From the NCBI RefSeq assembly GCF_006937785.1, contig NZ_SJEE01000026.1, positions 1-32,000 on the forward strand: DNA of 32,000 nt. The letters are read 5' to 3'. The position numbers were made by a program, and so were the translations under genes. Every line of letters begins with the position of its first letter. Position 1 is the first letter of the stretch. Source of the stretch: Pseudanabaena sp. UWO311. GTDB taxonomy: Bacteria; Cyanobacteriota; Cyanobacteriia; Pseudanabaenales; Pseudanabaenaceae. The notes beneath the pieces were generated by a model, which saw only the letters and a list, made by a program, of their open reading frames with translations, was not told the DNA's origin and did not search any database. Positions 254 to 14,137 of this stretch are shown here, piece after piece.

Positions 254-2089
254 ATGATAAATAACTGGCTGGACACGATCTGGCTGATTCCCTGCTATTC
301 CCTGATAGGAGCAATGCTATCGATCATCTGGTTTCCCAGCATCACGCGCAAAACGGGACCCAGACCAGCAGGCTACATCAATATTTTCATGACTTTCTGC
401 TCATTAGTTCATGCGATCGTCGCTTTGACTGTAGCTTGGGGACAGCCAGCACATTTATTATCTTTTCCTTGGCTTACGGTCGGAGGACTAGACTTTACAA
501 TCGACCTACAGATTTCAGAAATCACTATTGGCGCAATCATCTTGGTCACTGGGATTAACCTGCTTGCCGAGATTTATGCGGTCGGTTACATGGAAATGGA
601 TTGGGGCTGGGGTCGCTTTTATGCGCTACTGGCACTTTTTGAAGCAGGGATGTGTTCCTTGGTTCTATGTGATTCCCTATTTTTCAGCTATGTCATTCTC
701 GAAATTTTGACCCTTGGAACTTATCTCCTTGTCGGTATTTGGTACAACCAATCACTGGTAGTAACTGGGGCGAGAGATGCTTTTTTGACTAAGCGAGTAG
801 GAGATTTATTCTTACTAGTAGGCGTAGTTGGTTTACTGCCCTTAGCTGGCTCTTGGAATTTTACGGAGCTAGCCGAATGGGCTCAGACTACAGATGTTAA
901 CCCAACGACGATAACCTTAGTCACCCTAGCCCTGATGGTTGGTCCGATGGGAAAATGCGCCCAATTCCCCTTACATCTTTGGCTAGATGAGGCGATGGAG
1001 GGGCCTTTACCAAGTACTGTGCTGCGGAATTCAGTAGTTGTCGCTACAGGTGCTTGGGTATTGATCAAACTTCAGCCTTTGTTTGCATTGTCACCTTTTA
1101 CTCAACAAGCAATTATTGCCGTTGGTTCAGCAACTGCATTAGGTGCAACGCTAATTGCGATTGGGCAGATTGACGTGAAACGCTCTCTGTCATATCTAAC
1201 CAGTGCCTTTATGGGACTAATCTTTATCTCCGTTGGTACTGGCAATACCCATAGTGCCTATATTTTGATTTTGTCCCATGCTTTAGCGATCTCGCTCTTG
1301 CTAATGTCAGTAGGCAGCATTATTTCCAACAACATTAGTCAAGATCTAACTTTGATGGGTGGGCTATGGAATCGCCGCCCGATTTCAGGAATCTGCTTTT
1401 TAGTGGGTGCGATCGGATTGATTGGATTGCCTCCATTGGGTGGATTCTGGGCTATGGTTGATTTGCTTAACTCTCTCTGGCAAGACAACCCTGCTTTAGC
1501 AGAATTGCTGCTATTAATTAATGGCTTGATTGCCTTCAGTCTTATGCGCGTATTTGGTCTGATTTGGGGAGGTAAACCCAAGCAGATGACGGAACGGTCC
1601 GTAGAGCCCCTATGGTTGATTGTCATACCAATGACCATAATGGCAGGTGTAGTATTGCATGTTCCTCAAATGCTAATCGCTTGGGGCGTTATTCCTAACT
1701 GGACGCAGATGCTTAGTCCTGATGCCCTGCTTCTAATCGGCTCAAGTGTTGCAGGGCTGGCTACAGGTGCATATCTCTATCTCAATCAGCAAGTTCCTAA
1801 GCCTGTAACTTTACCTTGGTTAGGCTTACAGAATTTCTTTGCCAATGATTTCTACACCCCAAAACTCTACAAGGTCACAATTGTGGGACTAGTAGATGGT
1901 GTATCGAAAGGGATGTACTGGTTCGATCGCTTTTTTGTCGATGGAGTAGGCAATTTCTTTGGATTAGCGACTCTGTTTAGTGGTCAAAATCTCCGCTACA
2001 GCACCTTTGGTCAGTTACAGCTCTATACACTGACGATTATGGTCGGCATTGGCGTTCTACTTTTATTACTGTTCAATTGGACTCTCTAA
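254..2089 (+). CDS. ndhF3: NAD(P)H-quinone oxidoreductase subunit F, CO2-uptake paralogue (NdhF3, NDH-1MS)
   Basis: 611-aa polytopic ORF with NuoL/NdhF antiporter-type motifs (KCAQFPLHLWLDEAMEGPLPSTV). It is the first gene in the conserved order ndhF3-ndhD3-cupA-cupS. Confidence 0.9.
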   Translation: MINNWLDTIWLIPCYSLIGAMLSIIWFPSITRKTGPRPAGYINIFMTFCSLVHAIVALTVAWGQPAHLLSFPWLTVGGLDFTIDLQISEITIGAIILVTGINLLAEIYAVGYMEMDWGWGRFYALLALFEAGMCSLVLCDSLFFSYVILEILTLGTYLLVGIWYNQSLVVTGARDAFLTKRVGDLFLLVGVVGLLPLAGSWNFTELAEWAQTTDVNPTTITLVTLALMVGPMGKCAQFPLHLWLDEAMEGPLPSTVLRNSVVVATGAWVLIKLQPLFALSPFTQQAIIAVGSATALGATLIAIGQIDVKRSLSYLTSAFMGLIFISVGTGNTHSAYILILSHALAISLLLMSVGSIISNNISQDLTLMGGLWNRRPISGICFLVGAIGLIGLPPLGGFWAMVDLLNSLWQDNPALAELLLLINGLIAFSLMRVFGLIWGGKPKQMTERSVEPLWLIVIPMTIMAGVVLHVPQMLIAWGVIPNWTQMLSPDALLLIGSSVAGLATGAYLYLNQQVPKPVTLPWLGLQNFFANDFYTPKLYKVTIVGLVDGVSKGMYWFDRFFVDGVGNFFGLATLFSGQNLRYSTFGQLQLYTLTIMVGIGVLLLLLFNWTL

Positions 2090-2095
2090 GCAAAG

Positions 2096-2227
2096 CCATT
2101 TAAGAATTTATTTAGATCCCCCCCAGCCCCCCTTAAAAAGGGGGGAGAATCAATTCTTCCCCCTTTTTAAGGGGGATTGAGGGAGATCTCTTAGACCTTT
2201 TAACCTTAGAAAGTAATTCTTAAATGG
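2096..2227. repeat. MITE-like nested palindromic element in the ndhF3-ndhD3 spacer
   Basis: 13-bp terminal inverted repeats: ccatttaagaatt (2096-2108) and aattcttaaatgg (2215-2227). They enclose two G/C-clamped hairpins, ccccccttaaaaagggggg (2127-2145) and ccccctttttaaggggg (2159-2175), which are near reverse complements of each other. The end sequences recur at 25595-25626. Confidence 0.7.
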
Positions 2228-2263
2228 TTTCTAAATCTGAATCTCTACTTTAGGAATAACACT

Positions 2264-3787
2264 ATGCTCAGCGCTCTAATTTGGTTGCCTGTGATCGGGG
2301 CATTAGCGATCGCCTTTCTCCCGCAAAGTCAAGTTAAAAAAGGATCGGCAATTGTTGCAACGGCGATCTTAATTCTTGATTTCATCCTTTTGCGACAATT
2401 CGATATCAAGATTTCGGGTTTCCAATTAACAGAAAATTTGCCTTGGCTAGAAAATCTTGGCTTAAACTACAGCCTTGGCGTTGATGGGCTATCTTTACCA
2501 CTAGTGGTTCTAAATGGGTTGCTCACTTGGTTGATCGTTTGTTTTTGCGATCGGCAGATCAAAGAACGCAATACACTCTTTCATGTATTAATGCTCTTGA
2601 TTCATGCTGGTGTAAGTGGCGCAATTCTCTCCACCAATACGCTGCTATTTGTGCTGTTTTATGAAATAGAGTTAATTCCTCTCTATTTAGTCATCGCAGT
2701 TTGGGGTGGCGGACAACGTAGTTACGCGGCGATGAAGTTCTTGATCTTCACTGCTATTTCAGGGATTCTCGTTTTAGTCGGATTCCTAGCTTTAGGATGG
2801 CTATCGGCAAATCCTACGCCAGTTTTTGACTATGCGACATTACAAACTCTTTCGTTACCGATTGAGATTCAAGTCACTCTCCTAGTGGTATTGCTACTAG
2901 GCTTTACGATTAAAGCTCCTTTCGTACCATTCCACACATGGCTACCCGATGCCTATGTAGAATCGACAACCCCAACGGTAATGATGCTCGGAGGCATTGT
3001 TGCTAAATTAGGAACCTACGGTTTGTTTCGCTTTTGTGTCGGTTTATTCCCCGATGCTTGGGCTTTACTATCACCTTGGATTGCAGTTTGGGCAGGCTTA
3101 GGAATTCTCTATGGCGCAATGGTTGCGATCGCGCAAAAGGACATCAAACGCATGGTTGCCTATAGCTCCATCGGTCACATGAGCTACATTCTCCTTGCTG
3201 CTGCTGCTGCCACACCTCTAAGCATGGTCGGCGGGATCATTCAAATGGTAAGTCATGGCTTAGTTCTATCACTGCTGTTCTATTTAGTCGGCGTGATTGA
3301 AGAAAAAGTTGGTACAAGAGATCTCGATGTTCTGAATGGCTTACTTAATCCCATACGCGGTTTGCCTTCTACCAGTGCATTGCTAATCTTAGGTGGTATG
3401 GCAAGCGCGGGTATTCCTGGGCTGATTGGATTCATCTCAGAGTTTCTGATTTTCCAAGGTAGTTTTAGCAAGTTCCCTATCCCCACGATCTTATCGATGA
3501 TCGGTACAGGGCTTACAGCTGTTTATTTCGTAATTCTGCTCAATCGTACTTGCTTTGGTAAATTGGATAATCACACCGCTTACTACCCTAAAGTTTCAGG
3601 TATTGAGCAGTTGCCAGCACTGATTTTGACTGCATTAATTGTGATTTTAGGAGTGCAACCATCTTGGTTAGTGCGTTGGAGTGAAGTAAGTGCCGTTCAG
3701 ATCATCGCTCGTGTTCCTGACACAGCGATTGTAGCTAGTACAAGTCTCATCAATGAAGACAGCAACTCTTTAACTGATCGCAATTAG
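2264..3787 (+). CDS. ndhD3: NAD(P)H-quinone oxidoreductase subunit D, CO2-uptake paralogue (NdhD3)
   Basis: 507-aa polytopic NuoM/NdhD-like ORF (FVPFHTWLPDAYVESTTPTVMMLGG) located between ndhF3 and cupA. Confidence 0.9.
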   Translation: MLSALIWLPVIGALAIAFLPQSQVKKGSAIVATAILILDFILLRQFDIKISGFQLTENLPWLENLGLNYSLGVDGLSLPLVVLNGLLTWLIVCFCDRQIKERNTLFHVLMLLIHAGVSGAILSTNTLLFVLFYEIELIPLYLVIAVWGGGQRSYAAMKFLIFTAISGILVLVGFLALGWLSANPTPVFDYATLQTLSLPIEIQVTLLVVLLLGFTIKAPFVPFHTWLPDAYVESTTPTVMMLGGIVAKLGTYGLFRFCVGLFPDAWALLSPWIAVWAGLGILYGAMVAIAQKDIKRMVAYSSIGHMSYILLAAAAATPLSMVGGIIQMVSHGLVLSLLFYLVGVIEEKVGTRDLDVLNGLLNPIRGLPSTSALLILGGMASAGIPGLIGFISEFLIFQGSFSKFPIPTILSMIGTGLTAVYFVILLNRTCFGKLDNHTAYYPKVSGIEQLPALILTALIVILGVQPSWLVRWSEVSAVQIIARVPDTAIVASTSLINEDSNSLTDRN

Positions 3788-3875
3788 TGCGATTTATGAA
3801 GATGTCGATTTATTAGCAGCAAGTTCAGAAGCAATTTTAGAATCAACCATTTAGATATATAAAAGGTAATCAACG

Positions 3876-5192
3876 ATGACAGCTACTTTAACGGAACCCA
3901 CAACCAAGCTACCGCCTTCCACCCATCCCTACGCAGAAGTCATTCATCGCCTCGAAGCAGGTGGCTCAATGCTGCCAGATACGCCCGAAAATCTCATGCA
4001 GATTATCGGACTTTACAAAGCATATGCTGTACCGATGGACTTCTATTGGCGGGATTTACTATACATAGCTGAACAAGTATTTTTAGAGCCAATTCCTGCC
4101 TTTAAATATTTTCTTCCCCAAGAATATTTAGATTTGCCTAATCACTATGCTGGCGATACTGCTGATTTGCGGTTTTGGCGAGGCGAAGCGACGGCTCATC
4201 CAGAATTATTAGAATTCATGGATAAGGGAGAACTCAAAGCCAAAATTCCCAAGATTTTTCATCATCTCTATCACGATCGCATCAATATGGAGTTTGCGGA
4301 AGAATGTATGCGCGCAATGCTCTGGCATCGAGGCATGGGCGGCGAGTTAGAGCCTTACATGGATTCTGAAGAATATAAGCAGAATGCCGATCGCGCCATT
4401 CGGGCTTTCTTTAAAAATAATCCAGTGATGTTGGGATTATACAAACTTTTTCCTGATATGTTCATGGAGCAATGTCGCCAATCAACCATGACTTCGGTGC
4501 TTGGGCTATTTTGGGAAATCATGGCTCCCGTGTTCTTTGAGATGTCGGATATTTACGATGAAGGTGGCTTTAAGGGCGTGCCTGATGCGATGGATTTCTT
4601 GGTAAATGGCATCTTTGCGATCGCGGGTCGTCCCATTTATCACCGCGTGAAGATTGGCGATGAATGGATTGATATTGTCCCCAAATCCAAGGGATTTACT
4701 TGGCTCTATGAGGCAGCCTTCCCCTATGTCGAGGCAGTGTTTTACCGCACTTCCCCATTCCGTGGTACGAAGTCTTACAATGCTCAAGCTCACGAAGTGC
4801 CTAACGATCAGAATGATTTTCACTTTGGAATTTTGTACGCGGATAAGTTCCCTGTGGGCTCCGCAGGTATTCCGCCCACATTGCTGCATCAAGACATGTA
4901 CCACTTCTTGCCGCAATATCTGATTGACTATTACAAACAACATTGTCGCGGTGAAGATGACATGCTAATTCAGTTAGCTGTCAGTTTTCAGCGATCGATG
5001 TACAACGTGACTTCGGCAGTAATTCAGGCGGGAAGAGCGGCGTTGCTTTATCCCTTAGATGATCCTAATCCTAAACATCTTTTGGCAAATCGTCATTATT
5101 TTGAAGGACAACTGAATCGATTCTGTAATCCTAAATATGGCATGGATAAAGCTGCCAGAATAGGGATGGTTCAGGATCAAAATTATCGGTAG
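3876..5192 (+). CDS. cupA: CO2 hydration protein CupA/ChpY of NDH-1MS
   Basis: 438-aa soluble ORF. The N-terminal HRLEAGGSMLPDTPENLMQIIGLYKAY region is typical of CupA/ChpY, and the gene follows ndhD3. Confidence 0.9.
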   Translation: MTATLTEPTTKLPPSTHPYAEVIHRLEAGGSMLPDTPENLMQIIGLYKAYAVPMDFYWRDLLYIAEQVFLEPIPAFKYFLPQEYLDLPNHYAGDTADLRFWRGEATAHPELLEFMDKGELKAKIPKIFHHLYHDRINMEFAEECMRAMLWHRGMGGELEPYMDSEEYKQNADRAIRAFFKNNPVMLGLYKLFPDMFMEQCRQSTMTSVLGLFWEIMAPVFFEMSDIYDEGGFKGVPDAMDFLVNGIFAIAGRPIYHRVKIGDEWIDIVPKSKGFTWLYEAAFPYVEAVFYRTSPFRGTKSYNAQAHEVPNDQNDFHFGILYADKFPVGSAGIPPTLLHQDMYHFLPQYLIDYYKQHCRGEDDMLIQLAVSFQRSMYNVTSAVIQAGRAALLYPLDDPNPKHLLANRHYFEGQLNRFCNPKYGMDKAARIGMVQDQNYR

Positions 5193-5914: not shown

Positions 5915-8731
5915 ATGTTTGGACAGCTATCTGAACGGCGAATGCATTTGATTCGCTGGATTTTAACGATCGCATGGTTACTGATCATCGCGTCATTATT
6001 TTACGATCCTTGGACTCCTCAATTTACAGTCTCCAATCATCCTTGGAGTCCATTAAGGTTAACTGATAGTTGTATCTCGGTACAAGGTAACTGCTTAGTA
6101 GAACAGCCCTATGCCCTAGGTACAACTATATTCTGGGGTGCGGTTGTCCCTGCGGCGATTTTCATTTTGTTGGTGTTTGGGCATGAGTTATGGCGGCGGA
6201 TTTGTCCGCTCTCATTTTTATCACAAATCCCTCGCGCCTTGGGTTGGCAGCGTCAATTTAAACGCGAAAATGCCAAAACTGGCAAGGTTCGCTATGAGTT
6301 AGCCAAAGTAAAGCCCGACTCTTGGCTAGGAAAAAACTATCCCTATGTGCAGTTTGGCTGGCTATTCGCAGGGCTATGCGGTCGGATTTTATTTTTTAAT
6401 GCCGATCGCTTGGTGCTGGCTCTATGGATATTGACGACGATTGCTGCTGCGATCGCAGTTGGTTATCTTTATGGCGGTAAGTCTTGGTGCAATTACTTCT
6501 GTCCGATGGCTCCCGTACAGCGCGTTTACAGTGAACCAGGGGGACTATTTAGCAGCAGTGCTCACACTAGCGATCAGTTGATTACGCAATCGATGTGTCG
6601 AACTGTAATGCCCGATGGCAAAGAGCAAAGTGCCTGTGTGGCTTGTCAAAATCCTTGCTTGGATATCGACTCTGAGCGGGTGTATTGGGATGGCTTGAGC
6701 AAACCTGAAGAATCATTTCTGAGATATGGCTATGTCGGTTTAGTGACTGGCTATTTTGTCTATTACTATCTCTATGCAGGTAATTGGGACTATTATTTCT
6801 CTGGTGCATGGGCAAGGCAAACTGACCAATTGGCAACCTTGTTTAGTGCAGGGTTCTATCTATTTGGACAGGCGGTTAATATTCCTAAATTAATTGCTGT
6901 ACCTTTAACGCTGGGCATTTTTACCGCAGTTGGTTATTTCTTAGGTCGCTGGATTGAAAAGAGGATCAGGATTTACAGCGGCGATCGCCATCTCAAGCTA
7001 TCTAGGGAAGTCATTCGTCATCGTATTTTTACTATTTGTACATTTACAATTTTCAACTTCTTCTTTATTTTTGGCGGTCGTCCGTTAGTCGCTTTGATGC
7101 CACTTTGGGGCCAATACATCTATGATTTGGGATTAGTTCTGCTCAGTACGCTTTGGGTGTATAAAACTTGGCAGCGTAGCCCCGACCTCTATTCACGGGA
7201 GAATTTAGCCAGTCGCTTCCGTAAGCAATTAGAGAAGTTGCAACTTAATGTTTCCCAGTTTTTAGAAGGGCGATCGCTCAGCGATTTGAATACCCATGAA
7301 GTTTATATCTTGGCAAAGGTTTTGCCTAGCTTCACTAGAGAAAAGCGCCACACTGCCTATAAAGGAGTGGTGCGTGAAGCCTTGGAAGAAGGATATGTCG
7401 ATTCTTCCAGCAGTTTAGAGGTCTTGCAACAATTACGTCAGGAACTTGGCATTACTGATGATGAACACCGTGAAGTACTAGAAGAACTAGGCATTGAAGA
7501 TCCACAGTTGCTAAACCCTGATCATAAACGTAGTTTAGAAAATCAAATTCGCTTGACGGGCTATCGCAAATCAATGGAGCGATTGATGCTATTGCAAAAG
7601 CAACAGTTTGATAACTCTTCCGATACTTTACTTGAGCAGAACTCAGCTCAAGTACGAGCCTTACGCCGCCAATATGCGATTAATCCGCAGGAAGAAGCTT
7701 GGATTTTGGATGGCATTTCTCCAGAATCGGGAAACCTGCGTAGAGCCGAGTTTTTAGTCGCCCAGTTACCATCTTTGATTTTCTGTTATCGAGCTTTACA
7801 TCAGCCGATCATTCAAGAACATCAGACTGTACTGAGACTTTTGTGGGATAGCATTACTCACAAAAAGGAATTAATTGTGCGGACTATTTTAGGAACTCTG
7901 GAGACTTTCCCAAATGATGCCGATGCGATCGCAGTTGCTCAACAGTTAGGACAATTAGCACCATCAGTTTTGGTGGAAGCCTTAGAATCTGAGAGCTGGA
8001 GCGATCGCTTATCTCCAGAAATCCTGCAATGTTTACATCCATCGCAGGGACAAGCAACTGTCTGTCAGCTCGATTATTCTATTGAGGAGATTTTGCGATC
8101 GCTAGAGCCTTTACTGGATGATCAAAATCCTTTGATGCAAGCTGCTTGTTTGTATATCACCGCCCAACTGAATCTTGAGCAAAGTAAGGCGATCGCTCGT
8201 AATTACAGTCTGCAAACTTCGATCTTAGTGCAGGAGACCGCCAAGATCGTACTCTCACTGTCTGATAGTTCCCCACCGCTCACAGCATTTCCGATGTTAG
8301 AGAAAGTAGCGCATCTCTTTAATAGCGATTTCTTCCATCGGATGCATGGTGAAACGTTGGTAGGGCTTGCCGATCGCGCTGAGGTGAGAGCATTTACGAC
8401 GAATGAGGTGATTACGGAAGCAGGTGATACTTGTCGTGAGTTGTTGCTGGTAATCACTGGCTCAGCGAAGATTAATTTCTATTCTCAGGGTGAGGTAGTG
8501 CGTGTTGAGCATCTGAAGTCTGGACAAACCCTAGATGAGCTAGAGGTTTTAGCCCATAGTGATTCTCAAAATACAATCATTGCAGATAGTGAAATCACGC
8601 GAATTTTGGCGGTTCCTGTTGATGCCTTTGATGCTTTTCTCGATCGCGATCGCGATTTTGCCCGTCGTGTTCTCGAACTAGAAAGCCGTCAATTGCAAAA
8701 ATTTATGCGATCGTTCCAGACTACAAGATAA
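5915..8731 (+). CDS. Multidomain membrane protein: NapH/polyferredoxin-like Cys-motif membrane domain, helical HEAT-like region, C-terminal cyclic-nucleotide-binding (CAP_ED) domain
   Basis: The N-terminal TM segments carry RRICPLSFLSQ, WCNYFCPMAPVQ and ACVACQNPCLDID cysteine motifs. The C-terminus has a cNMP-binding beta-roll pattern (FTTNEVITEAGDTCRELLLVITGSAKI...SGQTLDELEVL). Confidence 0.6.
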   Translation: MFGQLSERRMHLIRWILTIAWLLIIASLFYDPWTPQFTVSNHPWSPLRLTDSCISVQGNCLVEQPYALGTTIFWGAVVPAAIFILLVFGHELWRRICPLSFLSQIPRALGWQRQFKRENAKTGKVRYELAKVKPDSWLGKNYPYVQFGWLFAGLCGRILFFNADRLVLALWILTTIAAAIAVGYLYGGKSWCNYFCPMAPVQRVYSEPGGLFSSSAHTSDQLITQSMCRTVMPDGKEQSACVACQNPCLDIDSERVYWDGLSKPEESFLRYGYVGLVTGYFVYYYLYAGNWDYYFSGAWARQTDQLATLFSAGFYLFGQAVNIPKLIAVPLTLGIFTAVGYFLGRWIEKRIRIYSGDRHLKLSREVIRHRIFTICTFTIFNFFFIFGGRPLVALMPLWGQYIYDLGLVLLSTLWVYKTWQRSPDLYSRENLASRFRKQLEKLQLNVSQFLEGRSLSDLNTHEVYILAKVLPSFTREKRHTAYKGVVREALEEGYVDSSSSLEVLQQLRQELGITDDEHREVLEELGIEDPQLLNPDHKRSLENQIRLTGYRKSMERLMLLQKQQFDNSSDTLLEQNSAQVRALRRQYAINPQEEAWILDGISPESGNLRRAEFLVAQLPSLIFCYRALHQPIIQEHQTVLRLLWDSITHKKELIVRTILGTLETFPNDADAIAVAQQLGQLAPSVLVEALESESWSDRLSPEILQCLHPSQGQATVCQLDYSIEEILRSLEPLLDDQNPLMQAACLYITAQLNLEQSKAIARNYSLQTSILVQETAKIVLSLSDSSPPLTAFPMLEKVAHLFNSDFFHRMHGETLVGLADRAEVRAFTTNEVITEAGDTCRELLLVITGSAKINFYSQGEVVRVEHLKSGQTLDELEVLAHSDSQNTIIADSEITRILAVPVDAFDAFLDRDRDFARRVLELESRQLQKFMRSFQTTR

Positions 8732-8783
8732 AGCAGAAATGTTTTATGGCGCGCCTTTACCGCGCCATAAAACATTTCTGCTT
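8731..8783 (+). terminator. Long perfect hairpin terminator
   Basis: 23-bp perfect stem aagcagaaatgttttatggcgcg / cgcgccataaaacatttctgctt with loop cctttac. It starts in the stop codon of the 5915-8731 gene. Confidence 0.75.
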
Positions 8784-8872
8784 TAAGGCAATTAAGTTTA
8801 GCGATCGCTCAATTCCTAGAGATGAAGTTTGTTGATATAAAATAGAAATATTGGCAAATCTGTGATCGAAGT

Positions 8873-9397
8873 ATGGATGCAATTACGACTATTTTTGTGG
8901 CAGCGATCAAAATTATTGTTGATTCTGGAGTATTGAGTAGAGTTAGTGATGGAGCAACGACTAAGATTGGTGAAAATATTACTGATGGGGTTGGTAATAT
9001 TTCACAGAGATTATGGGCAATGCTAAAGCGGAAATCTCCTAACACTGATACGGTAAAGAAACTTGGTAAAGGGCAAGAGATTGATTACCAGCAGGCAGTG
9101 ATTGATGTCGAGGCGATCGCGGATGATCCTGATGTGGTGAAATTATTGGATGAGGTGCGATCGCTTTTGGAAAGTAATCAAGAGCTAGCAGCTAGGGTTG
9201 AAGAGTTGGCGGCACAGGCTATAATTGCGCCTAAAATTGTACAAGTGATGGCTAGTGATATTGAGGGCGTAAACCTTCGAGCAAAATCAATGAAGCAAAC
9301 AGCGCCATCTGGCAGTAGCTCAGTTGAGCAGACGATGCTAAAGAATGTCAAAGTAACGGATGATATCGATTTGGGTGATTTAACTCAGGAGGCTTAG
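8873..9397 (+). CDS. Hypothetical 174-aa protein: hydrophobic N-terminal helix, acidic coiled-coil middle, C-terminal pseudo-repeat motif. First gene of the NLR-like module.
   Basis: ORF begins MDAITTIFVAAIKIIVDSGVL. The middle region reads VVKLLDEVRSLLESNQELAARVEELAAQ, and the tail reads NVKVTDDIDLGDLTQEA. Its stop is 3 nt from the next start codon. Confidence 0.6.
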   Translation: MDAITTIFVAAIKIIVDSGVLSRVSDGATTKIGENITDGVGNISQRLWAMLKRKSPNTDTVKKLGKGQEIDYQQAVIDVEAIADDPDVVKLLDEVRSLLESNQELAARVEELAAQAIIAPKIVQVMASDIEGVNLRAKSMKQTAPSGSSSVEQTMLKNVKVTDDIDLGDLTQEA

Positions 9398-9400
9398 GCG

Positions 9401-9832
9401 ATGGAAGAGTTGTTAGAACTAAAGGGATTTTTGCTCAGTGGCAATATCTCTGATGCTTTGCTGTTGGTGGAGGAGATGACAGAAATGAGCAAAGATGACA
9501 AATTAAATAAAATTTCCAGTTTTGCCAAGATTCTCCTATTGCATTTAATCAAGCGCCAAGCGGAAGGACGAACAACGAGATCGTGGGATGCTTCTATTGA
9601 AAATGCTGTTTATGAAATTCAGAAAACAAATCGTCGCCGTAAAGCAGGAGGGAGCTATCTGACTAAGGAAGAATTGCGGGAAGCAATCAGCGATGCTTAT
9701 CGGGTGGCGATATCAGGTGCGGCGGCTGAGGCTTTTGGTGGTTGTTATACAGTCATACAACTAGCGGCGATGGTCGATTGCGAGGCTATTATTAATCAGG
9801 CGATCGCTTTAATTTTGGGTGAGGCAACATGA
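9401..9832 (+). CDS. DUF29-like helical protein
   Basis: LLLHLIKRQAEGRTTRSWDASIENAVYEIQ resembles the DUF29 core (LL.HLLKWQYQP..RS.SW..TI). It shares an ATGA start/stop overlap with the NB-ARC gene. Confidence 0.5.
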   Translation: MEELLELKGFLLSGNISDALLLVEEMTEMSKDDKLNKISSFAKILLLHLIKRQAEGRTTRSWDASIENAVYEIQKTNRRRKAGGSYLTKEELREAISDAYRVAISGAAAEAFGGCYTVIQLAAMVDCEAIINQAIALILGEAT

Positions 9833-12159
9833 CGACAGATCCGAAAAATCAACAGTCGGCTTTACAAGGTAATGATGTGGCGCGCGACCTCACAATTGGT
9901 AACTTCGCACAGACAATCAACTACAACCAAATTATTCAAGAGGCAAAACTGACGGGGGGCAGCCTGATCAATTTGCCGCAGACTAATGTGACTTTTTTTG
10001 CGGGACGGGATGATGACCTGAAAAAAGTACATGAACTTTTACAGAAAAATCAGAGGGTGGCGGCAGTAGCTTTTGTGAAAGGGATGGGGGGTGTGGGGAA
10101 GTCAGAACTTGCCCTTCAATATTCGCTACGGCATTTTTTGACGGACTATAGCGGTGGAATCTGTTGGTTACGGGCAAATGAGGGGACTTTGCCGACCCAA
10201 TTACAGGATTTTGTACAGATACAGCTTGGGGAAATGATGCCCGATGGGTTAGATAGTGGCGAAAAGTTGGCGGGACATTGCTGGCGGCGGCTTTCGGATC
10301 GCTTGGAGGGGCAGATGTTGGTGGTGTTAGATGATGTGAAAAGTTCTGACGACGTGAATCCATTTTTGCCACCTCAGAATGGAAAGTTTTGGGTGTTGGC
10401 GACGACGCGGTTGGTATTGGGGAAATGGGATCAGCAATACACGTTAGATGTGTTGGTGTTGGCGGCGGCGGTGGATTTACTAAAGTCGTTTTTACCTGAA
10501 GCCGATCCGCGTCGGGGGAATGATGCGGAAATCGAGAGGCTTTGTGAGTGGTTGGGGCGGTTGCCTTTAGCGATCGAGTTGGTGGGGCGGTATTTGGCTT
10601 TGCCGAATCAGTTAGATACTGGTATTTCTGAGATCTTGCAACGCTTGCAAGGAGAATGTATGGTGCAGCTTTCGCAAATTACTGATGAAGAAAGGAAGTT
10701 ATTACCCAAAAATCTAAATGTGGCGGCTTCATTTTTCTTGAGTTGGCAAGAGTTGTCACCCTTGGCTCAACGTTTGGCTTGTATGCTGGGTTTGTTTGCC
10801 TTAGCGCCGATTCCTTGGGAACTAGCTGAAAATGCAGCACTCTTCAAGTTAGAAAATATACAAAGCAGCCGCCTGACTAAATTTATCAATGGTTTAGAAA
10901 ATATACAAAGCAGCCGCCTGACTAAATTTATCAATAAAACCTTGAAAAAAAATAATCCAAAAATAACAAAAGAAGACTTAAAAAAGGCTCGTGGTGAATT
11001 ATTGAATATAAATTTATTGCAAGTAATCTTTCTAGAGGATGTCCATTTTTATCATTTACATCAATTACTACGAGAGTATTTTAAATTTCAATACCAAAAA
11101 CATTCTGAATGGTCAAATATCAAGGATAAATTGATTTGCAGTTTAATTAAGTTTTGCAATAATTTATCTAATAATGAAAACTCATCAAACATTGCTACCA
11201 GTTATTTGAAACCACATTTAGGAATTCTTAAAGACAGAGAGAAAATATTTGATATCTGTAAATCTGATAATGAATTTATAGAAGATGTATTACGTGGATT
11301 TGGTAGCCTTAGAGATTACTATGAGAAGATAGGCTCATATTCTATTGCAGAGGATTGGGGAATTGAAAGCTTAGAGATCAGAAAAAAGTTTTATAGTGAG
11401 CAGCATTCTGATATTGCTCAAGATTGTAGCAAGCTTGCACATATCTACAATATGAATCAAAAATATAATGACGCAGTTGATTATTTTAAGCAAGCTATTC
11501 AAAAATACAAAAAGGCAGGTGAAATGCGTGAAGAGATAAAGAATGTGATCAAGGCTACAAGACTTAACTTTAAGTTAGACATATATTATGAGTTTGATTT
11601 GGAAAAGCACGAAAAAGAAAGTGAGAATTTATCTAATGATAAGCATGATTATGATCTGCGTTATGAAATCAAAGAATTAAGACAAGAAGAAGACAAACAA
11701 GCAAAACAAAAAGAAGAAAAGAGATTAAACTCTGTAAAAGAAGAAATTAAGATAGCTGTTGTTGGTTATCGTAATACTGGCAAAACAAGTTTTATCCGAA
11801 CATTAGTTAGAGACAAAGTTGGAATTGTAGAAGATAAAGCAGGAAGTACTATAGAGCCAGAAGAACACGAATGCTTGACTAATATAAAGCTAGTCGATTG
11901 TCCAGGGTTTATCAGTATTGATCAATACCAATCTTACAGAAGAGAAAAAGAGGAGAAATTACTCTCTAAAAGAGAAATATTAAGCAAAAACAAATGGACA
12001 GAAGAAACAATTGATCTATGCGAAAAAGCAATTAACAAAATAAAAATATCTGACATAGTTATTTATGTTGTCAGTTTAGAAAATCTTCACGATGAGGTAA
12101 CACAAAGAGAGATCGAGGAAATTAAAAATACAAACAAAAAAAATTATAGCTATTATTAA
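9829..12159 (+). CDS. STAND/NLR-like NTPase: NB-ARC module, winged-helix, TPR-like region, then the first half of a TRAFAC-type GTPase domain. The reading frame is interrupted at an A8 run.
   Basis: NB-ARC motifs: GMGGVGKSELA (10081-), LVVLDDV (10318-), WVLATTR, GRLPLAIELVG (about 10554-). GTPase motifs: G1 VGYRNTGKTS (11764-), G2-like GSTIEP, G3 DCPG (11896-11907). Confidence 0.85.
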   Translation: MTTDPKNQQSALQGNDVARDLTIGNFAQTINYNQIIQEAKLTGGSLINLPQTNVTFFAGRDDDLKKVHELLQKNQRVAAVAFVKGMGGVGKSELALQYSLRHFLTDYSGGICWLRANEGTLPTQLQDFVQIQLGEMMPDGLDSGEKLAGHCWRRLSDRLEGQMLVVLDDVKSSDDVNPFLPPQNGKFWVLATTRLVLGKWDQQYTLDVLVLAAAVDLLKSFLPEADPRRGNDAEIERLCEWLGRLPLAIELVGRYLALPNQLDTGISEILQRLQGECMVQLSQITDEERKLLPKNLNVAASFFLSWQELSPLAQRLACMLGLFALAPIPWELAENAALFKLENIQSSRLTKFINGLENIQSSRLTKFINKTLKKNNPKITKEDLKKARGELLNINLLQVIFLEDVHFYHLHQLLREYFKFQYQKHSEWSNIKDKLICSLIKFCNNLSNNENSSNIATSYLKPHLGILKDREKIFDICKSDNEFIEDVLRGFGSLRDYYEKIGSYSIAEDWGIESLEIRKKFYSEQHSDIAQDCSKLAHIYNMNQKYNDAVDYFKQAIQKYKKAGEMREEIKNVIKATRLNFKLDIYYEFDLEKHEKESENLSNDKHDYDLRYEIKELRQEEDKQAKQKEEKRLNSVKEEIKIAVVGYRNTGKTSFIRTLVRDKVGIVEDKAGSTIEPEEHECLTNIKLVDCPGFISIDQYQSYRREKEEKLLSKREILSKNKWTEETIDLCEKAINKIKISDIVIYVVSLENLHDEVTQREIEEIKNTNKKNYSYY
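10859..10945 (+). repeat. In-frame tandem duplication (45-nt period) at a compositional breakpoint
   Basis: A perfect 42-nt copy, ttagaaaatatacaaagcagccgcctgactaaatttatcaat, occurs at 10859-10900 and again at 10904-10945. It encodes LENIQSSRLTKFIN twice. Confidence 0.95.
12136..12143 (+). other. A8 homopolymer at the frame junction of the STAND gene (candidate slippage or indel site)
   Basis: The upstream frame stops at 12157-12159. The +1 frame is open from 12101 to 13036, and the two open frames overlap exactly across this A run. Confidence 0.8.
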
Positions 12160-13036
12160 TCAGTCTAATTCTATATCTTCTGACAAGAAAAATAGAATAC
12201 CCAAGTGGAAGCAATTCTTTAAAGATCAAGATGTCAAATATTATCTCGATTTTGATTGTTTTTGGGATAAACCATCAAAAATAGATTCACTATATTCATT
12301 TGTTTCAGAGAGCTTATCTGGAGATTTTAAAAAGAATCAGTCTTTTGCTTCTGCGCTGGAAATTTATGAAGACAAAAAATTAAAAAAATTAAAAAAAATT
12401 TGTACCGAATTTTCTAGTTGTTTAATTGATTGTAGAAAAATTAAGTTTCAAGTGGCAAATACTGAACAAGAAAGAGAGAACGCTCAAGAAGACTGCTCTA
12501 AAATGGCTTTGTCAATAATAAGAAAGTTTATCGAAGAAACACAAAAAGAATTTGAAATTGCAGTTAACATTAAACACTCAGACATTCAAGAAGTAATCTC
12601 AGCGAATGATTTTAACATCACGCATATTTCTAATGAAGCCGCATCTAAGACTGCAATATTTTCAGGACTTGGCGCTGTAATTGGCAGTGCAGTTCCATTG
12701 GTAGGAACAGCAATAGGAGCAGTAACAGGGTCATTGATAGGAGCAGGGATAGGTTATTTAACAACAAAAGACACAAAAATAGAGGTTAATTTGAGTTCAG
12801 CTAACTTAAACTGTATTTCTAGTTTTTGCTTGGCTTATTTATCCGCTTGTTTATTTTGTGGTTATGCAAAGTATGGTTATAAAATTGAAGATGAATACAG
12901 GAGACAACTAGATTGGCATAAAATAAAGACTTTGCTTAAAAACACAACTAAATATTGCAGTGAAAAAAATAATTTGATTGAATTAAGTGAAGAAGAAATG
13001 GTTACATGGTGTAATGACTTTCTTGTAAAACTTTAA
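12143..13036 (+). CDS. +1-frame continuation of the STAND gene: rest of the GTPase domain (degenerate G4), helical region, glycine-zipper/hydrophobic segment
   Basis: 117 open codons (12101-12451) with no ATG, GTG or TTG lie upstream of the track's GTG start. KKIIAIINQSN falls at the position expected for a G4 (NKxD) motif. The GxxxG-rich segment FSGLGAVIGSAVPLVGTAIGAVTGSLIGAGIGY spans 12653-12760. Confidence 0.7.
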   Translation: MIAIINQSNSISSDKKNRIPKWKQFFKDQDVKYYLDFDCFWDKPSKIDSLYSFVSESLSGDFKKNQSFASALEIYEDKKLKKLKKICTEFSSCLIDCRKIKFQVANTEQERENAQEDCSKMALSIIRKFIEETQKEFEIAVNIKHSDIQEVISANDFNITHISNEAASKTAIFSGLGAVIGSAVPLVGTAIGAVTGSLIGAGIGYLTTKDTKIEVNLSSANLNCISSFCLAYLSACLFCGYAKYGYKIEDEYRRQLDWHKIKTLLKNTTKYCSEKNNLIELSEEEMVTWCNDFLVKL

Positions 13037-13090
13037 AATAATCAAAATAAAATATTTTATTTTCAATCAAACTTTAGTAGCAAGCAAAAA

Positions 13091-13369
13091 ACTTACTCAT
13101 CGCAAGGGAAGTAAAACGAAGCCGAACCTCTCTTTATGCGATCGCTCTCTATCAGGGAACGCCAACTAGGAACAGACCATCCCAATGTCGCCGCCAGTCT
13201 ATTCAACTTAGCCGCCCTCTATCAAAATAAAAATACCCAACGTCATCCCGAAGCCCTGCAATCCATCCAACGCACCATCCAAATTTACGAACGAAAACTT
13301 GGCACTGAGCATCCCAATACTCAAGCAGCACTCAGTTGGCTTCAGGCGATCCGTGAGGCATCTCTATGA
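13091..13369 (+). pseudogene. Remnant 3' end of a KLC-type TPR (TPR_10/12-like) gene with an internal TAA
   Basis: [42 protein letters not shown]...LGTEHPNTQAALSWLQAIREASL. There is an in-frame TAA at 13112-13114 where TPR repeats normally have Tyr. GC content returns to the host level here. Confidence 0.7.
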
Positions 13370-14137
13370 TTGCAACTGACGCACCTGCTCAACTTTTAAG
13401 CCAGTAACCTGAGCAACTTGCTCAATATCCATACCAGACTTCAGCAAATTTAGAGCGATTTCTTGGCGACCCTTTAGCAAGCCTTTTCTTAGTCCTCTTT
13501 GCAAACCCTTTAATTCGCCTTCTCGCAAAGCATCTTTATATACTCTGGTATTTTTTATATCACTGAGTGTAAACATCGCTTCAATCTCCTCGCGGCTTAA
13601 GTTTTTAAATTTGGACACAAGCACAGCTTCGACTAATTCCATAATATCAGGATTTAAGTTTTGCTGCTTCAAACCCTGCACAATTTTCGGCGCATCACTT
13701 TCTGGGCTTGTAATTAACTGAACTATAGCGATCGCCACTGACTCAGACTCACCCAACTCATCGAGATAAATTGGTATTAAACGTTGATTATCAATCAACT
13801 CTTGCTGAAAACTTGATAATTTGGTGGGAGCAACTTGGCGATCGGCAAATATTGCAACTGCCTTCCAATCATTTTCTGGCTCATATTGACTGAGATACAA
13901 TAAAATCTCGCTGAGAAATTCCCAATAGAAATTAGCTTTTTTCTGAAACTGTACCTCTACAAAGTAAATCGGCTTGTCTATCCTATCAGGAGCAAAGATG
14001 CCATCAAATCGAAAAGCCTTCTCTTTCACTTCCACTGAAATAAACTCATATCCCTCTTCAAACGGTTGATTGAGAAGTTCAAACAGCAGCGTATTAAAAG
14101 TTTGAAAGAGTTTATAAAAAATCGTGTCAGTTCGCAT
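13364..14137 (-). CDS. Rpn-family recombination-promoting nuclease / putative transposase (PD-(D/E)XK; cyanobacterial DUF2887/DUF4351 type)
   Basis: MRTDTIFYKLFQTF N-terminus, FDGIFAP...PIYFVEVQFQK nuclease core, and a basic C-terminal tail with GLKVEQVRQL. Confidence 0.75.
   Translation of the reverse strand: MRTDTIFYKLFQTFNTLLFELLNQPFEEGYEFISVEVKEKAFRFDGIFAPDRIDKPIYFVEVQFQKKANFYWEFLSEILLYLSQYEPENDWKAVAIFADRQVAPTKLSSFQQELIDNQRLIPIYLDELGESESVAIAIVQLITSPESDAPKIVQGLKQQNLNPDIMELVEAVLVSKFKNLSREEIEAMFTLSDIKNTRVYKDALREGELKGLQRGLRKGLLKGRQEIALNLLKSGMDIEQVAQVTGLKVEQVRQLQS

Follow-up and report, generated by a model that had tools for sequence, protein, structure and literature searches.

The closest described relatives of the locus treated here are gene pairs in which an NLR receptor and a membrane-targeting killer protein share a short amyloid signalling motif. 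Dyrka et al. 2020 (10.1101/2020.01.06.895854) described this architecture of Bell domain, BASS motif and NLR, and demonstrated prion and fibril behaviour for BASS1 and BASS3, and Bab/Agp of E. coli is an example of amyloid-triggered abortive infection (Ibarlosa et al. 2024 preprint, 10.1101/2024.11.07.622273). Table S2 of Dyrka et al. (10.1101/2020.01.06.895854) also holds a BASS4 entry, VEQTMLKNVKVTGDIDLGDLSQE paired with QPQINQSILNNVNVGGNLTTGDI, with a distance of 433 nucleotides (nt); its accessions differ by two, and I take this to mean that one gene probably lies between the partners. The locus in question consists of three genes in a 32,000-nt stretch of Pseudanabaena sp. UWO311 (the window, whose positions serve as coordinates throughout). 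An earlier note on this DNA, the original prediction, took it for an undescribed three-gene system. In this study I argue that the locus is quite probably a Bell/BASS/NLR amyloid-signalling cell-death operon, the receptor of which had its sensor half replaced by a foreign segment, and that the resulting chimera has probably decayed.

Genes 1 and 3 encode a predicted pair of the published type, a Bell effector and an NB-ARC NLR joined by a BASS4 motif, and in this respect the architecture regarded as new in the original prediction is the Bell-BASS4-NLR arrangement that was already on record. The motif occurs in the tail of the gene 1 product and again near the N-terminus of the NLR (Table 1), where the window reads DLTIGNFAQ against the BASS4 receptor pattern NLTxGDITQ. 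I compared tails and NLR N-termini by Smith-Waterman score, with p values from shuffled sequences. The window pair (tail EQTMLKNVKVTDDIDLGDLTQ, NLR N-terminus QQSALQGNDVARDLTIGNFAQ) reaches a score of 31 (shuffle p 0.027 to 0.009), and the pairs of the orthologous loci L001 (tail EQTMLKNVKVTGDIDLGDLTQ, NLR N-terminus QQSALQGNDVGRDLTIGNITQ) and L023 (tail VEQTMLKNIKVTGDI, NLR N-terminus VNQTAFQNMTVGGDV) score 36 (p 0.009) and 37 (p 0.0018), respectively. For the L005b pair the score is 74 (shuffle p < 2e-4), and for the L007 pair (tail QSGTGNTQTNTFNL, NLR N-terminus QGGTGNTQNNTFNF) it is 75 (z about 10, p < 2e-4). The tails of gene 1 and the N-termini of the cognate downstream NLRs co-vary, every tail class matching its own NLR. 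The L007 pair is itself listed in Table S2 of Dyrka et al. (10.1101/2020.01.06.895854), as BBC24761.1/BBC24758.1 of Pseudanabaena sp. ABRG5-3, with BASS3 and a distance of 466 nt, and both the motif strings and the distance obtained here agree with that entry. The L023 receptor belongs to a different NB-ARC lineage (33% identity to the N-terminal half of the window protein), yet it carries the same BASS4 motif in the same register, hence the motif follows the partner and not the NTPase.

A locus of Pseudanabaena yagii (GCA_012863495.1, L005:6001-9724) presents a further arrangement of such motifs. Its Bell protein has a BASS5-type tail only (KLAEKIGIVVQSGGKADIGTFNM) and its NLR N-terminus has BASS3 only (INIGQGGTGNTQNNTFNF), and between the two genes lies one for a protein of 150 amino acids (aa), its N-domain without assignment, in which both motifs stand in tandem (KLSEKIGVVAQSGSVVNIGTLNV, then VNVDQSGTNNTQNNTFNL). 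The protein in the middle may be an adaptor that bridges the two motif types, possibly as an amyloid relay.

By homology to a listed Bell protein, the product of gene 1 is a predicted Bell-type membrane-directed effector: it matches BBC24761.1 (P0104), which stands in the Bell set of Dyrka et al. 2020, at E 7e-28, with 47% identity across the whole alignment. The N-terminal helix of the protein is hydrophobic, aa 1-117 make up a helical domain, and the tail is disordered. Its hydrophobic start had been noticed earlier and proposed as a membrane-active effector, which accords with this assignment, and the Bell/HeLo-like domain check suggested at the time points to the right answer, namely Bell. 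All 152 homologues come from Pseudanabaena, and they share a conserved helical N-domain of about 115 aa with a hydrophobic start (consensus MEPVSLLVGLL...), followed by a C-terminal tail of one of four unrelated classes. The AlphaFold2 (AF2) model, made with 120 homologues, is helical at 3-117 and has pLDDT values below 50 in the tail; the overall pLDDT of 55 is a low-confidence value. Foldseek gave no match of this model to the PDB at E < 2, a PDB profile search with gene 1 returned coiled-coil noise only, and a profile search with the N-domain found nothing outside the Pseudanabaenaceae. A HET-s-like double pseudo-repeat in the tail was considered and rejected (r1 versus r2, p = 0.45), which leaves the repeat-like tail of the earlier description without statistical support.

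The third gene was correctly recognised in the original prediction as an NLR without an enzymatic N-terminal effector domain, within an NLR/STAND-type cell-death or defence locus, and the NB-ARC core motifs named there are all visible in the translation (Table 1). Against the named STAND systems in PADLOC (Avs, bNACHT and others), the NB-ARC part gave no match at E <= 1e-3. The trio of gene 1, DUF29 gene and NLR gene, whose conservation had been put forward as a check, does recur with identical spacing in other Pseudanabaena genomes and in metagenome contigs, but its third gene there encodes an NB-ARC and TPR protein of 797-997 aa with no GTPase. In the window the NB-ARC domain is kept, and the native TPR array is replaced; of repeats there are only a weak TPR-like stretch in the foreign segment and, behind it, an orphan remnant of the array. 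In the metagenomic Pseudanabaena locus L023, a convergent gene for a 677-aa CHAT-domain protein (L023:4848-6884, minus strand) lies directly after the BASS4 NLR.

The replacement is visible in composition as well as in homology. The guanine-plus-cytosine (GC) content is about 0.48 as far as position 10818, drops to about 0.27 just behind it and recovers near 13100. Nucleotide homology to the L001 NLR gene runs at 84% from 9070 to 10818, is then lost, and is back at 13093-13355, where 86% identity is found to the last TPR units; at the protein level, identity to L001 drops from 85% ahead of the junction to 28% behind it. Between these limits the segment codes for a winged-helix linker of divergent sequence, for a short TPR stretch, for a coiled coil and for a GTPase/glycine-zipper module of about 440 aa, and it brings its own stop codon together with about 55 nt of AT-rich 3' flank. 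The foreign part opens with NLR-type winged-helix sequence (ARGELLN..LHQLLREYF), from which it follows that the donor was a distant NLR-like gene and not random DNA. A metagenome scan for relatives or a donor of the low-GC segment found none. The HIP1 palindrome (GCGATCGC) occurs 42 times in the whole window versus 0.3 expected, and the longest stretch free of it (9808-13137) covers the NLR including the foreign segment, which fits a foreign origin but is not decisive, as there is a 2.8-kb gap elsewhere in the window. It seems hardly credible to me that the low-GC block is a contaminant or a misjoin of the draft assembly: the abruptness of the GC change, the perfect 42-nt duplication at the left edge and the draft nature of the 71.5-kb source contig would suit such an artefact, but the block lies inside a single gene, native sequence and synteny resume on its far side, the frame is kept across the left junction into sequence homologous to NLRs, and a misjoin normally would not return to the same gene.

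Within the foreign segment the reading frame is broken at a run of eight A residues, and removal of one A gives a continuous 1068-aa product. A stand-alone homologue from Laspinema (P0121) aligns straight across the frameshift (NSKVIAVLNQ versus NKKIIAIINQ), and the 776-aa (TYQ24806.1) and 194-aa products are both singleton protein clusters. For the receptor I infer a decaying chimeric allele and not a designed two-NTPase system. The second NTPase and the glycine zipper had been counted as parts of the system; in the orthologues there is only TPR, and in the window these parts lie in a low-GC, frameshifted segment. The original prediction had held that it would fail if the GTPase/glycine-zipper half occurred only as this decayed single copy, and for the fusion this is what was found, in this strain alone.

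The opposite view is that the chimera works, the frameshift being either a sequencing error or bypassed by slippage on the A8 run; a functional 1068-aa NLR would then keep its Bell/BASS4 output, and the GTPase with its paddle would serve either as a new sensor associated with the membrane or as a second membrane effector, acting in cis. The deposited assembly contains the frameshift, annotated as two separate proteins, and a +1 shift is unlike the usual programmed -1 slippage, but the 2.27-kb foreign reading frame is otherwise open and keeps G1-G4, FDxxWDKPSK, the glycine block and the C-terminal WC motif. Likewise, the junction preserves the frame and the winged-helix-like motif, and the GTPase family is elsewhere fused to the conflict-system domains TPR (P0131), EAD11, SIR2, CHAT and kinase, although the fusion in the window is a singleton without relatives in metagenomes, with an orphan TPR remnant and an in-frame stop downstream of it. 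On balance I consider a functional chimera unlikely, and retain the reading of a decayed one.

Table 1. Features of the Bell/BASS4/NLR locus in the window of Pseudanabaena sp. UWO311
Feature	Position	Strand	Description
Perfect 25-bp inverted repeat (hairpin)	8729..8785	.	100% complementary; between the cyclic nucleoside monophosphate (cNMP)-binding membrane-protein gene and the operon
Gene 1	8873..9397	+	Predicted Bell-type effector, 174 aa
BASS4 amyloid signalling motif, effector side (predicted)	9323..9388	+	aa 151-172, VEQTMLKNVKVTDDIDLGDLTQ; near-identical to the published BASS4 string VEQTMLKNVKVTGDIDLGDLSQE
Gene 2	9401..9832	+	DUF29 protein, 143 aa; translationally coupled on both sides
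Gene 3 as annotated	9829..12159	+	Chimeric NB-ARC NLR, 776 aa, truncated by frameshift
BASS4 motif, NLR side (predicted)	9850..9912	+	aa 8-28, QQSALQGNDVARDLTIGNFAQ; fits the BASS4 NLR-side pattern ..NLTxGDITQ
NB-ARC ATPase domain	10009..10665	+	Gene 3 aa 61-279; PF00931, E 4.7e-10; Walker A GMGGVGKS, Walker B LVVLDDV, TTR, GRLPLA
Foreign low-GC replacement segment	10819..13092	+	GC about 0.25-0.34; 2.27 kb, replacing about 1.2 kb of TPR-coding DNA
Perfect 42-nt tandem duplication	10849..10935	+	Two copies with GGT between them; at the low-GC segment's left edge
TPR-like stretch	11305..11553	+	Gene 3 aa 493-575; TPR_12, TPR_10 and TPR_NPHP3, all below cut-offs
TRAFAC-class GTPase domain	11749..12141	+	G1 (GYRNTGKTS), G2, G3 (DCPGF); MMR_HSR1, E 1.4e-13, aa 641-770
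A8 homopolymer, frame shift +1	12136..12143	+	A7 would restore the 1068-aa open reading frame (ORF)
GTPase module continuation, +1 frame	12143..13036	+	G4-like NQSN, helical stalk, glycine-zipper membrane segment, C-terminal helices; includes the annotated 194-aa ORF 12452-13036
Glycine-zipper / hydrophobic paddle-like segment	12635..12769	+	Gly-zipper_Omp, E 5.8e-5; DUF6861; G-rich block conserved across the family
Orphan 3' TPR remnant	13093..13369	+	High GC, 86% identity with the L001 NLR's end; TPR_12, E 5e-12; in-frame TAA at its start

The second P-loop of gene 3, which lies in this segment, does have the GTPase motifs G1, G2 and G3 that had been predicted for it, with an MMR_HSR1 match (Table 1). 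The glycine zipper described in the continuing frame is present too, its matches in ORF 12452-13036 lying just under the Pfam cut-offs, but it is reached only through the +1 shift in the A8 run. An exhaustive profile search of 1.84 billion representatives identified about 70 clusters of the module's family at E < 1e-30, for the most part proteins that stand alone and measure 445-470 aa. Among the family members listed, fusion to NB-ARC occurs in the window's own protein only; in other members the fusion partner is TPR (P0131, 28% identical over 465 aa), EAD11, a Ser/Thr kinase, SIR2_2, CHAT or DUF2868. Residues 1-200 of P0131 form an N-terminal region of about 200 aa without a Pfam match, possibly an NTPase-like domain that has degenerated or else a novel one. 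A word-indexed homologue search with the GTPase half returned P0121 only, the candidates being swamped by low-complexity words. With a 6-sequence alignment, a scan of genomes recovered 13 loci, 12 of them in cyanobacteria, mostly filamentous genera, and the remaining one in a metagenome-assembled genome of Candidatus Obscuribacterales. The family's genes lie 1-10 GC points below their surroundings in these loci, and their upstream neighbours include genes for kinase-PBP, kinase-FGE-sulfatase, TIR-GUN4 and patatin. A viral scan gave one weak match, restricted to the G domain.

In the loci L010-L021 (for example L011:3559-5979, L015:4125-5789, L018:4814-5956 and L021:4814-5731), stand-alone GTPase/glycine-zipper genes stand directly 3' of sensor-type genes, whose products are a Ser/Thr kinase fused to a periplasmic-binding or an FGE-sulfatase domain, an SBP protein or a TIR-GUN4 protein. 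From gene order, this arrangement suggests two-gene conflict systems composed of a sensor and a GTPase.

As to the nature of the module, PADLOC matches its G domain to LeoA and LeoBC, and the part behind the GTPase to positions 349-488 of LeoB (E 8.7e-8). LeoB has been described with a membrane-binding domain between its middle and GED regions, and the LeoA paddle as glycine-rich. The AF2 model of P0121 (pLDDT 57) shows a G domain and a long helical hairpin (197-282), and Foldseek lists Era/Der first with this model, and also BDLP, LeoA, IniA, EHD4 and GIMAP/IRG proteins, BDLP and LeoA with a TM of about 0.25. The Dynamin_N profile of Pfam is not reached (21 bits versus a cut-off of 27), MMR_HSR1 and Era/Der being best, and instead of paired dynamin-like protein genes of the LeoA with LeoBC type there is a single copy here and a single gene in the 13 recovered loci. 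Since the module has neither a dynamin G domain nor a paired gene, I do not count it as an Eleos member; the model and the distant matches make it a putative mini dynamin-like, membrane-associated GTPase. A literature search for a described function of DUF3482, a domain that occurs in part of the family, brought up two incidental mentions only, and EAD11, glycine zippers and DUF29 are not mentioned in the main text of the searched Aravind-group papers. I found the GTPase/glycine-zipper family undescribed in the literature searched. One may speculate, with a good deal more doubt than confidence, that these proteins of about 450 aa are uncharacterised mini dynamin-like, membrane-acting effectors or switches of cyanobacterial conflict systems, and that the window captures the recruitment of one of them onto an amyloid-signalling NLR.

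Between effector and receptor, gene 2 encodes a DUF29 protein (PF01724 with 33.4 bits versus a cut-off of 22.5, E 6e-8; DUF29 family protein in the NCBI annotation), in line with what had been seen in the sequence before. Every BASS4-type locus examined has DUF29 behind gene 1. The same slot is occupied by HicA-HicB in BASS3 and BASS5 loci and by MNT-HepT in the fourth tail class, and L001 and L024 have a second DUF29 copy upstream of gene 1, L024 also having HicAB after DUF29. Small toxin-antitoxin-like genes are present in every Bell-NLR gap examined (window 9401-9832; L005:6938-7425; L007:6405-6892; L008:6540-7239; L024:6487-7419), as DUF29, HicA/HicB, MNT/HepT or DUF29 with HicAB; their stop and start codons usually overlap and their type follows the gene 1 lineage. 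I read the slot as a probable sink for small toxin-antitoxin-like cassettes. As it holds HicAB or MNT/HepT in sister lineages, a core role of DUF29 is doubtful, and the gene is probably a passenger or accessory and not a signalling component, which goes against its earlier inclusion in the system. A search for functional literature on DUF29 found none.

With these observations at hand, the view that all three genes form one coherent, undescribed defence system, with DUF29, an NB-ARC protein with a built-in GTPase and two membrane-active ends co-adapted to each other, appears to me very improbable. Tight translational coupling, the conservation of DUF29 beside gene 1 in the BASS4-type loci examined and the lack of a PADLOC match to named STAND systems all accord with it, but the effector-receptor pairing has already been described, sister loci carry other genes in the middle slot, and the GTPase half is compositionally foreign, frameshifted, unique to this strain and absent from all orthologues examined.

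The reading of the locus as a Bell/BASS4/NLR operon with a decayed chimeric receptor has several points against it. For the window pair itself, the motif match reaches no more than modest significance (p about 0.01-0.03), and the amyloid evidence in the literature concerns BASS1, BASS3 and BASS11 and not BASS4, amyloid formation and toxicity of gene 1 being predicted only. The gene 1 model is weak (pLDDT 55), with neither a fold nor a PDB match, and membership in the Bell set comes from homology to a listed member and not from a direct profile test. The constant presence of DUF29 in the BASS4-type loci examined would allow a functional role for it, and the A8 frameshift may stem from an error in sequencing the homopolymer; the chimera would then perhaps be intact and active.

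For the intact form of the operon, a mechanism can be proposed on the model of the published homologous systems. The C-terminal TPR array of the NLR would sense a trigger, upon which the NB-ARC domain would oligomerise and gather the N-terminal BASS4 motifs into an amyloid fold; this fold would template the corresponding BASS4 tail of the Bell protein from gene 1, and the hydrophobic N-terminal helix of the latter would attack the membrane and lead to cell death (abortive infection). In UWO311, the sensor half appears to have been exchanged for a horizontally acquired low-GC segment of a distant NLR-like gene, at the end of which there was presumably a small dynamin-like GTPase whose membrane paddle is rich in glycine. 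The resulting NB-ARC-GTPase fusion, seen in this genome alone, is broken by the +1 frameshift in the A8 run, with the orphan TPR remnant left downstream.

The layout of the operon, re-derived here, is that described before: three genes on the same strand, with a 3-nt gap between genes 1 and 2 (TAG gcg ATG) and an ATGA overlap between genes 2 and 3, and with the same spacing in the orthologous loci L001 and L023. A strong terminator had been placed upstream at 8731-8783; the perfect hairpin does exist, at 8729-8785, but a consensus scan finds it terminator-like on the minus strand only, the plus strand lacking a good T-run. Toxin-antitoxin, HNH and DUF2887 genes form a small islet around the locus, with housekeeping operons on both sides. 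At 254-5192 the window has what looks like an inducible CO2-uptake NDH-1 operon, with two Proton_antipo_M subunits and ChpXY, resembling ndhF3, ndhD3 and chpY, and after it come a fasciclin gene and a gene for a membrane protein of 938 aa that has a cNMP-binding domain at its C-terminus. On the other side, the DUF2887 gene (13364-14137, minus strand, E 1e-60) overlaps the end of the TPR remnant and sits where the syntenic L001 has a ParE toxin gene; the Phd/YefM antitoxin and HNH genes downstream are conserved.

NLR repertoires are thought to diversify by sensor-domain replacement. The locus offers a natural example of this process in a bacterial NLR, in which both junctions, the orphaned remnant and the likely type of donor can be identified. 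The recurrence of toxin-antitoxin-like cassettes between effector and receptor raises the question why this slot attracts them, and the cyanobacterial GTPase/glycine-zipper family, with its conflict-system fusions, might be worth testing as a defence effector. If the proposed role of this family were true and the frameshift an error, the receptor would have two membrane-directed outputs.

In comparison with known systems, the GTPase module resembles LeoA/LeoBC (Eleos in PADLOC) and BDLP in its predicted build, in which the GTPase is followed by a putative long helical hairpin and by a hydrophobic, glycine-rich membrane segment. It differs from them in its much smaller size (about 450 aa), its Era/Der-type MMR_HSR1 G domain and its single gene; the similarity is distant and the structure model of low confidence. 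Several members of its family match the Pfam GTPase/DUF3482 proteins (MMR_HSR1 with PF11981) at E 1e-7 to 1e-12, whereas the window's own copy reaches no DUF3482 score. The operon as a whole would follow the logic of Bab/Agp of E. coli and of the fungal HET-S/NWD2, in that a receptor-side amyloid motif templates the tail of a neighbouring membrane-targeting killer, though the motif is BASS11 or HRAM in those and BASS4 here, and homology of Bab to gene 1 was not detectable in the searches made here. The finding can be placed under the published mechanism of NLR amyloid-templated activation of a Bell-type killer, and not under a new system. As in the Bell/BASS/NLR pairs of Dyrka et al., a small helical effector with a hydrophobic N-terminus carries a C-terminal motif of about 22 aa that recurs at the N-terminus of a collinear NB-ARC NLR, and there, too, at least one small gene can lie between the partners (distances 433 and 466 nt). 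The experiments in that work were done on BASS1 and BASS3, whereas the window motif is BASS4, and the NLR of the window differs from the published ones in that its TPR array has been lost to a foreign, GTPase-bearing segment, and in that it carries a frameshift.

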